A stretch of 64,000 bases of DNA from Podarcis liolepis (Eukaryota), in NCBI GenBank assembly GCA_965112155.1, contig OZ218101.1; one strand, given 5' to 3'. Both the position numbers and the translations under genes were made by a program. A model generated the notes under the pieces. That model worked only from the letters and a program-made list of their open reading frames with translations. It had not been told where the DNA came from and ran no database searches. Position 1 is the first letter of the stretch, and each line of letters opens with the position of its first letter. Positions 676-21,921 of this stretch are shown here, piece by piece.

Positions 676-860
676 ATGATGGCTTCTGTGTTCACATCCA
701 ACAAAACCATCAGGGTTTGCCCTTTCCTCAATGGAGATATCGAAAACCCAGAGACCAAAACTAACAACAGCAACACATGGATTCGTCCTAATTTGCCCAG
801 CAGATGTACATGGAAACCAGGAAAACCCATCTCAGAATCACCTCACAGCTGTGTGCCTAT
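676..860 (+). CDS. CBSL: CBS-like coding exon 1 (heme-binding N-terminus)
   Basis: Acceptor AG 671-672, ATG 676, [23 protein letters not shown], donor GTAAGT 861. Confidence 0.9.
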
Positions 861-3800
861 GTAAGTAGCATTTAGAATTTTAAAAATTACCTCTCAATGT
901 CCACTCCCACCTTGAGGGGTTCCTCCTAAATATATATTGTATGAATCACGGTATTGTGGTATTGTGCGGTATTGTGAGCATATTCCAGTATCGTTTCAGA
1001 TCAGAGATTCAGCATGTGGTTTTCATGCTCCCCCCCTCCATCTAGTTTATTAAGATTTTCACACTATTACTAGCGAACAATACAGTCCCTTATTCCCACT
1101 CCCCACTCCTAGATTCCCTCCCTCCAACCCCTCACTCTCTCTTTTTTTAGCTACAATATTTTCATCATTGATATTCAATTGTTCAGCATGCTATACAGTA
1201 CTTAAACTGCACACATATATTCTATACCTATATATCTGTATACGTATGTACATGTACATCTGGTTAAACATCTGAGTAAACCAAATGCATAATCACCTAT
1301 ATGAGCCTTTGGCAACCTGGTAACTTCCAGATGTTTTGGACAATCATTTGCATCACATCTGGATGGCACCAGGTTGGTACTATACTAATGTTCTGGTCAT
1401 TTCCTTCTGAGCCTAATTTGGATGAGCCTAATTTGTCCACACGGTGGCTTCTTATTCTTTGTTGGTTCTCAGCTTTTGAATTACAAAATGAAGACATTGT
1501 GAAGTCTCCCAGGAACCTTTTTCAGATTCCCATGATGAGCATACATGATTTCCATTGCATGTTGGTCCTCCAAGGCTTTCTTCAGATTTGAGGTGCCCTG
1601 GCCAGAGTATCTTTGGGTGGGCCTACTCCTCTGTCAGTGAGCCCAGGTAGGCTTAACTGCCAGTGGTGGCAGTTTCCCAAGTATTCCTGCATGACTGGGC
1701 CTTTTAATTCCTCACTGTGCTCCAAGATGATGCTTGGTCAAGGACATTGTGGGGAATTAAAAAGGTGATGAGATCCCACAGCCTGGGGCTGTTTGGAGTG
1801 ATGTTCCCTCCTCTCCTCCCCCCCCCCCAAAAAAATTGAGAGGCAGACATCTGCAGTGTGATCTGCCAGGGTGCTGGAACCCAAAAGTTACTCAAGAATG
1901 GGAGGTGTTGATGGTGACCCCCTGTGAACCACATTTATTATGATGGGGAAAGCAGGGAAAAAACACCCTACGTCTCTAGACTGGGAGACTTGGAAATGCT
2001 GAAATGACCATCCAAGTCACTGAAACCAGAACTTCTATGGTTGTGTTTGTGCTCCCATTTGCTGTGCATTCACTGCATTTCCATTGCTGGGCTTTTATTC
2101 CACGTTCACATAACTCTTCAGAATGCATCTCTGTCCTGCACTTTGTTGTGAAGTACTGCTGTTCGAAGCATTGTATCTCAAACCAGCTTTACATCCTTTG
2201 GAGTCCTTAAGCAGTTCCTAATTCATCTCCAGCCAAGGTGCAAATACCTTTGCATAAAGTAAATACATCTCCTTCCCGGCAGCGAAGGTCAATGAAACCA
2301 CACTAACATGAACAGCTGGGGGGAGGGGGGAGAGAGTGCTGTGAAACACACAAGTGAAACAACTGCAGTGTGCTCTAAGGCGGTAATGTGGACAAGTCCT
2401 ACATATAAAGAGATTCAGAAGAGCGGCTGCAGTGTGGCACAGACTCATTCTCATCTGAGTTTCAAAATGCAAACAGTAATGAGTGGCACCCTTAAGGCTT
2501 CTCTCTAATCTATCTTTCGTGGTAGCTGGTTTGTGTGAAATGATAATAGCTATTCACTGCATAAGCAAAGGAGCAGTAAATCTGTTTAGAAATTGCTCGG
2601 GGAAGTGATCTGTCTGAGAGCAGATCTGCGGCTTCCCCTATCACAGGACCACCTGCACCAGCAGCTTGGTGGTTAGTTCAGCTTTTCCACAGATGAAAAA
2701 GGCTGTTAGAAATACAGTGGTGCCTCGGGTTAAGTACTTAATTCATTCCGGAGGTCCGTACTTAACCTGAAACTGTTCTTAACCTGAAGCACCACTTTAG
2801 CTAATGGGGCCTCCTGCTGCTGCTGTGCCGCCAGAGCACAATTTCTGTTCTCATCCTGAAGCAAAGTTCTTAACCTGAAGCACTATTTCTGAGTTAGCAG
2901 AGTCTGTAGCCTGAAGCGTATGTAACCCAAGGTACCATTGTAGTTCTCAAAAACCAGAAGCACTTCTGGGGGTCCTGTTTGTTTCATAACAAAGGGAATT
3001 GGAGAAAGCAGCATTTTGGGCAAAAGGGCTGGTTTATCCTCTCAATCTGACATAAATGAATTGATTACATTTTGGAACAATTATGAAGAGTATAAATAAA
3101 AGAAGACATTTCTTCCATGTCATCAGATAAAGTAGCATTGGTTGTTGCAATGTGTTCTTTTTACAATATAACTGGTGCACCTTCTTGCAACTGCCCAGTA
3201 CAGTGGTATCTCGGGTTAAGTACTTAATTCGCTCCAGAGGTCTGTACTTAACCTGAAACTGTACTTAACCTGAAGCGCCACTTTAACTAATGGGGCCTCC
3301 TGCTGCTGCCGTGCCACTAGAGCACAATTTCTGTTCTCATCCTGAAGCAAAGTTCTTAACCTGAAGCACTATTTCTGGGTTAGCAGAGTCTGTAACCTGA
3401 AGCGTATGTAACCCGAGGTACCACTGTACACTTAAGAGCAGTAGCTTATTTCCATCTCACCACTCAAAACAAAACCAAAGCAAATTGTTGGGGGGAGGGT
3501 AATGAAATCTTCTTGCTTCTGCCAAGATCTACAAACCACCATCAAATTTAGCAACATCAAAGTATTTCCTAGCTGTCCATTGTAAGGATTTTTTTTAAAA
3601 AATCATTAAACTATAAGAGAGGAAGGCGGAAGAAAGAAACCCTGTCCTTCTTTATTAAATGTGTAGGGTGTGCAAGAGCTCTACACTTCACAAAGTAAAA
3701 CAAAGTTTTCTGCTTGAACCTGTGCAAGATAACATAGATCTGTAACCGAATGCTTCCTGTAGTAAAATGAGTTAATGATAAGCCGGAGGATTTAGAAGTC

Positions 3801-21800: not shown

Positions 21801-21921
21801 AGCTGTTGATCTTCTCAGCTTTGTCACCCCCAAAAACAAGACCCAGGAACGAAGAGATGCGACACTGGAATCAAATTCTTCTGAAAGAATTTTCTCCATG
21901 GCAGAATCTGTGGAGAAATAG
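676..21921 (+). CDS. CBSL: Cystathionine beta-synthase-like gene (probable sauropsid cysteine lyase); 15 coding exons, 566 aa
   Basis: GT-AG exons 676-860, 6125-6231, 6918-7052, 9975-10054, 11107-11238, 11916-11985, 13246-13337, 13744-13875, 15083-15167, 16447-16552, 17920-17994, 18969-19103, 19936-20044, 20784-20868 and 21749-21921 join in frame (1701 nt including stop). Motifs: [16 protein letters not shown] (heme), GGSVKDR (PLP Lys), TSGNTG, GTGG, CPEC, C-terminal CBS pair. Tail-to-tail with PKNOX1 as in the human locus. CBS family is certain; cysteine-lyase identity is inferred. Confidence 0.93.
2715..2940. mobile_element. Tc1/mariner-type MITE (copy A)
   Basis: TA|CAGTGGTGCCTCGGGTT...AACCCAAGGTACCATTG|TA; 226 bp. 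Confidence 0.85.
3201..3426. mobile_element. Tc1/mariner-type MITE (copy B)
   Basis: TA|CAGTGGTATCTCGGGTT...AACCCGAGGTACCACTG|TA; near-identical to copy A. Confidence 0.85.
4631..4678. repeat. (TAT)n microsatellite
   Basis: Direct reading. Confidence 0.95.
5190..5336. mobile_element. hAT-type MITE
   Basis: Degenerate CAGTGCTTTTT-type TIRs; 8-bp TSD CTTAACTC/CTTAACCC; homologous to 52550-52693. Confidence 0.7.
6125..6231 (+). CDS. CBSL: CBS-like coding exon 2
   Basis: [43 protein letters not shown]; 107 nt. Confidence 0.93.
6918..7052 (+). CDS. CBSL: CBS-like coding exon 3 (PLP lysine)
   Basis: [44 protein letters not shown]; 135 nt. Confidence 0.95.
8973..9222. mobile_element. Tc1/mariner-type MITE (different family)
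   Basis: TA|CAGTCGTACCTTGG...CCAAGGTATGACTG|TA. Confidence 0.8.
9975..10054 (+). CDS. CBSL: CBS-like coding exon 4
   Basis: [27 protein letters not shown]; 80 nt. Confidence 0.95.
11107..11238 (+). CDS. CBSL: CBS-like coding exon 5
   Basis: [44 protein letters not shown]; 132 nt. Confidence 0.95.
11916..11985 (+). CDS. CBSL: CBS-like coding exon 6
   Basis: [23 protein letters not shown]; 70 nt. Confidence 0.95.
13197..13230. repeat. (TGAT)n microsatellite
   Basis: Direct reading. Confidence 0.95.
13246..13337 (+). CDS. CBSL: CBS-like coding exon 7
   Basis: [31 protein letters not shown]; 92 nt. Confidence 0.95.
13744..13875 (+). CDS. CBSL: CBS-like coding exon 8
   Basis: [44 protein letters not shown]; 132 nt. 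Confidence 0.95.
14080..14217. mobile_element. Palindromic hAT-type MITE
   Basis: Long inverted arms CAGGCATAGGCAAA..CCCTCCAGATGTTTTG / CAAAACATCTGGAGGG..TTTGCCTATGCCTG; TSD CACTAGAG/CACTAGAA. Confidence 0.85.
15083..15167 (+). CDS. CBSL: CBS-like coding exon 9
   Basis: [28 protein letters not shown]; 85 nt. Confidence 0.95.
15482..15657. mobile_element. hAT-type MITE
   Basis: CAGTGCTTTTT...AAAAAGCACTG TIRs; perfect 8-bp TSD CACATATC. Confidence 0.85.
16447..16552 (+). CDS. CBSL: CBS-like coding exon 10
   Basis: [35 protein letters not shown]; 106 nt. Confidence 0.95.
17920..17994 (+). CDS. CBSL: CBS-like coding exon 11
   Basis: [24 protein letters not shown]; 75 nt. Confidence 0.93.
18863..18896. 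repeat. (TG)n microsatellite
   Basis: Direct reading. Confidence 0.95.
18969..19103 (+). CDS. CBSL: CBS-like coding exon 12 (CBS1 domain)
   Basis: [44 protein letters not shown]; 135 nt. Confidence 0.94.
19528..19650 (-). repeat. (GAA)n tract attached to a truncated retroposon 3' end
   Basis: About 13 GAA units followed by GAGTTTGGATTTGATATCCCGCCTTTCACTCCC...CTCAAAGCGGCTAACA. Confidence 0.6.
19936..20044 (+). CDS. CBSL: CBS-like coding exon 13
   Basis: [36 protein letters not shown]; 109 nt. Confidence 0.94.
20784..20868 (+). CDS. CBSL: CBS-like coding exon 14 (CBS2 domain)
   Basis: [28 protein letters not shown]; 85 nt. Confidence 0.94.
21548..21673. mobile_element. hAT-type MITE
   Basis: CAGGGCTTTCTTTC...GAAAAATAGCGCTG; degenerate TSD CTCATGGG/CTTTTGGG. 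Confidence 0.6.
21749..21921 (+). CDS. CBSL: CBS-like last coding exon
   Basis: [30 protein letters not shown]...SVEK*; acceptor TCTTCCAG ends 21748, TAG ends 21921. Confidence 0.92.

Follow-up and report, generated by a model that had tools for sequence, protein, structure and literature searches.

A tandem CBS duplicate in the wall lizard Podarcis liolepis, almost certainly orthologous to the reptile-and-bird paralog and a likely cysteine lyase

Cystathionine beta-synthase (CBS) acts by beta-replacement on pyridoxal 5'-phosphate (PLP) through an aminoacrylate intermediate. In the chicken, a CBS paralog, cysteine lyase, reportedly turns cysteine and sulfite into cysteic acid and H2S, the CSAD ortholog is said to decarboxylate cysteic acid to taurine, and canonical CBS reportedly recycles the H2S to cysteine while development proceeds in the egg. 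Here we describe a CBS-family gene at positions 676-21921 (plus strand) of a 64 000-nucleotide stretch of Podarcis liolepis contig OZ218101.1 (assembly GCA_965112155.1), the whole of which is called the window below. Judging from sequence comparison, this gene is almost certainly the lizard ortholog of the tandem CBS duplicate of reptiles and birds and, by orthology with chicken CBS-like, its product is probably a cysteine lyase that depends on heme and PLP (cysteine + sulfite -> cysteic acid + H2S). The enzyme family itself is already described, with high cysteine lyase activity in the early chick area vasculosa given in an excerpt of PMC3628655; what is new here is the lizard member.

Exon 8 of the window gene retrieved 96 proteins, the best of which are 'CBS-like' entries of lizards, snakes, turtles, crocodilians and birds; cluster members of these matches added chicken XP_015156382, and exon 8 of a second, upstream CBS gene (see below) retrieved canonical CBS. 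We take XP_015156382 to be the cysteine lyase reportedly characterised by Malatesta and colleagues in 2020, since it is the protein by which chicken is represented in the non-canonical clade. The window protein is 78% identical to this chicken CBS-like protein and 72% identical to its own upstream paralog. The alignment comprises 52 full-length named proteins and the two lizard gene models, 54 rows altogether (30 duplicate, 24 canonical), with fragments, isoform duplicates and invertebrate rows left out and with CBS of Tinamus (an ostrich relative), starling and alligator taking the place of chicken canonical CBS. In a quick tree of these 54 rows, all 30 duplicate rows, those of the window and chicken included, fall on one side of a single branch (Shimodaira-Hasegawa-like approximate likelihood ratio test support of 100) and resolve into squamate, turtle and archosaur subgroups; more careful trees, built from 24 or 27 rows, support the duplicate clade at 100/100. 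Constraining the window gene to canonical CBS costs 307 log-likelihood units and is rejected by the approximately unbiased (AU) test (P = 1.3e-5), so that the initial annotation, which had read the gene as an ortholog of the chicken CBS paralog and had proposed a phylogeny with chicken CBS and chicken cysteine lyase as the check, is borne out. The duplicate appears confined to reptiles and birds among the best 120 matches to chicken CBS-like, 58 of which carry duplicate-type motifs (57 named sauropsid, one without an organism name) and 62 canonical motifs; no mammal protein occurs among these 120, which is not proof of absence elsewhere.

The same annotation expected a canonical CBS immediately to the left of the window and suggested inspecting the upstream sequence for it; a conserved CBS with canonical motifs throughout does lie there in tandem, and the window gene is thus not the sole CBS in the genome. 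A search of the genome with the PF00291 profile yielded 13 matches, two of them on the contig that carries the window (C4) and both corresponding to CBS exon 3, one inside the window and the other about 39 kb ahead of it, and the remaining 11 on C5 and C16; an exon-5 query matched the genome twice, among two candidates, and these are the two tandem CBS-type genes. The upstream copy (C4:50924274-50947096, window position -39726 to -16904, that is, 17-40 kb upstream) lies on the plus strand like the window gene, encodes 552 amino acids, shares its 15-exon layout and intron phases (100 kb of upstream sequence mapped), and is canonical in all the segments that the initial annotation had listed as changed in the window protein. 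DNA similarity between the paralogs is confined to exons (74-88%) and shared repeats, which points to an old duplication and not to an artefact of assembly; an assembly duplicate is ruled out by this pattern together with the 72% protein identity, and a single-copy CBS is ruled out by the second gene. Six bird database models (P0299, P0300, P0303, P0304, P0305 and P0340) are 79-86% identical to chicken CBS-like yet have canonical active-site motifs; they are probably chimeras in which the two tandem genes have been merged.

All the cofactor residues of CBS are retained in the window protein, as had been noticed at the outset: in human numbering, counted from the alignment with PDB 8s5h, these are heme C52 and H65, K119, T146-T150, Q222-Y223, G256-G259, R266, C272/C275 and S349. 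The numbering of C52, H65, K119 and R266 agrees with an excerpt of PMC5381205, and that of T146, S147, T150, Q222, G305 and Y308 with an excerpt of PMC9304066. The heme and PLP residues are complete in each of the 30 aligned duplicate-type proteins. Against this constant background, 22 columns, derived here from the 30 duplicate versus 24 canonical rows and not taken from the primary paper, separate the two sets; the window protein has the clade-majority state in 22/22 and the state of chicken CBS-like in 19/22, compared with 0/22 chicken states for the upstream copy. The active-site entrance accounts for nine of these columns (T193C, a one-residue loss at about A195, H203N, G205R, L287V, E289L, E291S, Y301M and Y308H), and ten more are found from residue 387 onward, in the linker and regulatory domain. 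According to the part of PMC5381205 cited above, T193-S199 is a mobile loop, and a human structure has two disordered loops, T193-S199 and Q295-T300; an excerpt of PMC7465669 gives docking contacts to K172, Y301 and Y308. Of the canonical entrance residues T193, H203, G205, E289, Y301 and Y308, the window protein has none; every one of the 30 duplicates has N203, L289, V287 and H308. The five changed segments singled out initially are all present in the sequence, and because the same changes recur across the 30-row clade they are not due to chance, but only some are diagnostic of the duplicate. Row counts across the two sets rule out SISG, DPDG, RYD and RNPSNP as diagnostic marks: T260S occurs only in five lacertid rows (5/30 duplicate, 5/54 overall), T262S, F197Y and E283D in 8, 14 and 16 of the 30 duplicates, respectively, and A226P in 28/30 duplicates but also in 6/24 canonical rows, all of them fish.

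The complete set of cofactor residues, the retained regulatory domain and the NCBIfam assignment of both lizard paralogs to CBS (687 bits for the window protein against a cut-off of 510) would fit an ordinary redundant copy still making cystathionine. Given the adjoining canonical CBS, the AU rejection of grouping with canonical CBS, and the five residues (T193, H203, G205, E289 and Y301) that are invariant in 24/24 canonical rows and replaced in 30/30 duplicates, such redundancy is highly improbable. The diverged duplicate instead appears to combine an unchanged catalytic scaffold, from which PLP-dependent beta-replacement via aminoacrylate is expected, with an altered choice of substrates. 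Cysteine would form the external aldimine with PLP, which Q222 and the T146-T150 loop, itself unchanged, would keep in place, K119 would take its alpha-proton, H2S would depart to leave aminoacrylate, and addition of sulfite would give cysteic acid. Replacement of Y308 by histidine in 30/30 duplicates would remove the hydroxyl that, in a modelling-based statement in an excerpt of PMC9304066, activates the serine hydroxyl as leaving group; serine would thus be disfavoured and serine-dependent cystathionine synthesis lost, with cysteine, which has the better leaving group, still usable. With two glutamates lost and one arginine gained (E289L, E291S and G205R), the entrance would be less acidic and better suited to anionic sulfite than to homocysteine as the nucleophile.

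Several observations weigh against assigning cysteine lyase activity, beyond the NCBIfam score. Histidine at Y308 is also found in catfish cbsb, one of the 24 canonical sequences, as well as in some matches of invertebrate type, so that this change is not sufficient alone; position 205 is serine in 5/30 duplicates, hence G205R is not essential across the clade; and the lacertid T260S falls in the PLP phosphate loop and is absent from chicken. None of the clade members among the database entries retrieved bears the name 'cysteine lyase'. As for the next step toward taurine, one exon of a CSAD-like gene on C2 best matches human CSAD (74 bits versus 66 for GADL1), but a second tested exon scores slightly higher with GADL1 and GAD1 than with CSAD; elsewhere the genome has distinct GADL1- and GAD-like loci. 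In a literature search that did not include the primary paper, no description of the residues of the sauropsid enzyme was found, and the 'cysteine lyase' of PMC8301176, a bacterial enzyme, was set aside. The following observations stand apart from this assignment. The proteins with histidine at Y308 outside the duplicate clade (P0090, P0081-P0089 and P0092, catfish cbsb and several invertebrate-type CBS) might reflect a convergent change of specificity. The CSAD-like exon (L039:1531-1680) departs from human and mouse CSAD at positions where CSAD shares GADL1/GAD residues, which may relate to specificity for cysteic acid. A third GAD-like locus is located at C8:68687010-68691869, besides those on C1 and C13.

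The window gene was modelled by first locating segments with a motif scan and then setting the exon borders to GT..AG, and with exon ends so fitted all introns are GT..AG. The model has 15 coding exons from ATG at 676 to TAG at 21921 with an open frame of 566 amino acids; open frame and splicing rule out a pseudogene. The splice acceptor that directly precedes the ATG indicates an additional exon on the 5' side. The window protein differs at 1/566 positions from Podarcis raffonei CBS-like XP_053242797 (an isoform with five extra N-terminal residues), at 3 from P. muralis, 4 from P. lilfordi, 9 from Zootoca and 10 from Lacerta. The features are listed below by window position; exons 2 and 4 come from the gene model, and exons 5-15 from the model together with sequencing runs.

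676..860, plus strand: coding exon 1, with the ATG at 676, Cys44 corresponding to human C52 (805-807) and His57 to human H65 (844-846); its junction with exon 2 is a loose end in sequencing run X1
6125..6231, plus strand: coding exon 2
6918..7052, plus strand: coding exon 3, with the PLP lysine K111 corresponding to K119 (6956-6958) and the TSGNT substrate-carboxylate loop
9975..10054, plus strand: coding exon 4
11107..11238, plus strand: coding exon 5, with the remodelled entrance loop and the diagnostic C185 (T193C, 11152-11154), one-residue deletion, N194 (H203N) and R196 (G205R)
11916..11985, plus strand: coding exon 6, with Y214 (Y223) and the non-diagnostic P217 (A226P)
13246..13337, plus strand: coding exon 7, with the GTGG phosphate loop, S251 (T260S, 13287-13289), R257 (R266) and CxxC
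13744..13875, plus strand: coding exon 8, with the diagnostic V278, L280, S282, M294 (Y301M) and H301 (Y308H, 13843-13845)
15083..15167, plus strand: coding exon 9, with the diagnostic R330
16447..16552, plus strand: coding exon 10, with S342 (S349)
17920..17994, plus strand: coding exon 11, end of the catalytic core and linker
18969..19103, plus strand: coding exon 12, regulatory CBS-pair domain
19936..20044, plus strand: coding exon 13
20784..20868, plus strand: coding exon 14
21749..21921, plus strand: coding exon 15, to the stop codon; a transcript contig extends to about 22325
37500..50045 (approximate span), minus strand: PKNOX1-like coding exons, the convergent downstream neighbour and a synteny marker

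Four of the 24 listed sequencing runs were aligned to window positions 5900-23400. Among the joints listed, 10 of the 14 introns are supported, by eight GT..AG joints located where predicted and by two loose ends. In run X1 (contigs, presumed RNA) the junction depth is about 1,340-1,780, and in run X23 (raw RNA-seq data, of which 12% was read) seven of the eight joints are covered by 1-5 reads each, with the first mate on the minus strand; runs X5 and X24 show no junctions of the window gene among the joints listed. This sharply unequal expression between runs of unlabelled tissue bears on a further alternative, namely that the lizard protein is indeed the ortholog of chicken cysteine lyase but that its main role in squamates has shifted or widened, for example toward making H2S or different products of beta-replacement in adult tissue instead of taurine synthesis in the yolk sac. 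The 22% divergence from chicken, the lacertid-specific T260S, and the retention of full-length copies in Zootoca, Thamnophis, Candoia and Hemicordylus, which are live-bearing, are compatible with such a shift. However, the 19 of 22 diagnostic columns shared with chicken and the four residues invariant in all duplicates point to one conserved chemistry, and live-bearing squamates are mostly still yolk-dependent; a changed main role is accordingly considered unlikely, and the activity known from chicken remains the preferred assignment. Separately, interspersed repeats within introns (14080-14220, 15480-15640, 19600-19660, 20390-20500 and 21530-21670) show very high read depth and loose ends, and intron 1 contains a near-identical pair of roughly 225-bp elements (2715-2940 and 3200-3430); their ends are inverted, and they look like a non-autonomous DNA transposon.

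The gene order on C4 is U2AF1 > CBS > window gene >< PKNOX1, which is like the neighbourhood of human CBS. The U2AF1-like exons lie upstream and share the strand of the two CBS-type genes, and the PKNOX1-like exons, recognised by short-motif matches, lie downstream and run the other way. Two database models, P0317 and P0344, join U2AF1-type domains to CBS, which is consistent with U2AF1 and CBS being neighbours. On C16 (22637340-22682478), three or more PALP-family genes, distributed over both strands, form a cluster that may be a serine dehydratase array.

If anything here could surprise a specialist, it is how old the duplication may be. It was reportedly dated to a proto-reptile, but in all rooted trees the duplicate clade falls outside amniote CBS, with mammal and sauropsid CBS joined at a bootstrap of 96-99, and also, with weaker support (85-94), outside amphibian CBS. 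In AU tests run with LG+G4 only and framed after the tree was seen, a clade of the duplicate with sauropsid CBS is rejected (P = 0.034 with 24 rows and 0.0006 with 27), and one of the duplicate with all amniote CBS is not (P = 0.126 and 0.059, respectively). A column count over 72 rows gives four sites derived in mammal and sauropsid CBS with the outgroup state in the duplicate, none uniting the duplicate with sauropsid CBS, one uniting it with mammals, two shared by all amniote copies and 27 found in the duplicate alone. A duplication that predates the mammal split, on the amniote stem, and was followed by loss in mammals is therefore a possibility, although a tentative one that we hold to be somewhat less probable than a later origin: the stem branch is long (0.33-0.39), the four supporting columns are conservative swaps and the mammal rows are placental only, so that long-branch attraction may explain the older date. 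If the early date is true, taurine production via cysteine lyase would go back to the ancestral amniote egg and not be a reptile invention.

As had been foreseen for automated annotation, the entries of this clade are named 'cystathionine beta-synthase' or '-like'; in reptile and bird databases the window-type gene is called CBS or CBS-like and the true CBS often 'CBS-like protein', and metabolic reconstructions consequently misassign both paralogs. The diagnostic columns derived here tell the two apart cleanly. The window gene would also extend the pathway characterised in chicken to lacertid lizards, Zootoca included, so that egg-laying and live-bearing forms become comparable.

Among the described systems, the bacterial cysteate synthase CapA is the more distant one. 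It is a PLP fold-type II enzyme like the window protein and makes cysteate with sulfite as the nucleophile, but it lacks heme and the CBS-pair domain and uses phosphoserine; with 305 bits against the CapA profile NF053679 (317 for canonical CBS, cut-off 600), the window protein falls outside this family, and the likeness is one of analogy only. Vertebrate CBS, represented by human PDB 8s5h and the upstream lizard copy, has the same domain layout, 15-exon structure and intron phases as the window gene and shares with its product heme C52/H65, K119, T146-T150, R266, CxxC, S349 and the CBS-pair domain, the differences being the remodelled entrance loops and the ten diagnostic changes in the linker and regulatory domain. 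The closest system is chicken cysteine lyase (EC 4.4.1.10; taken to be XP_015156382), likewise a tandem CBS duplicate, which the lizard protein resembles in clade, in sequence (78% identity), in heme and PLP ligands and in 19/22 diagnostic columns. Compared with it, the lizard protein is 34 amino acids longer, mostly in the C-terminal tail, has methionine where chicken has valine at Y301, carries T260S and T262S, and has a two-residue insertion near position 288.

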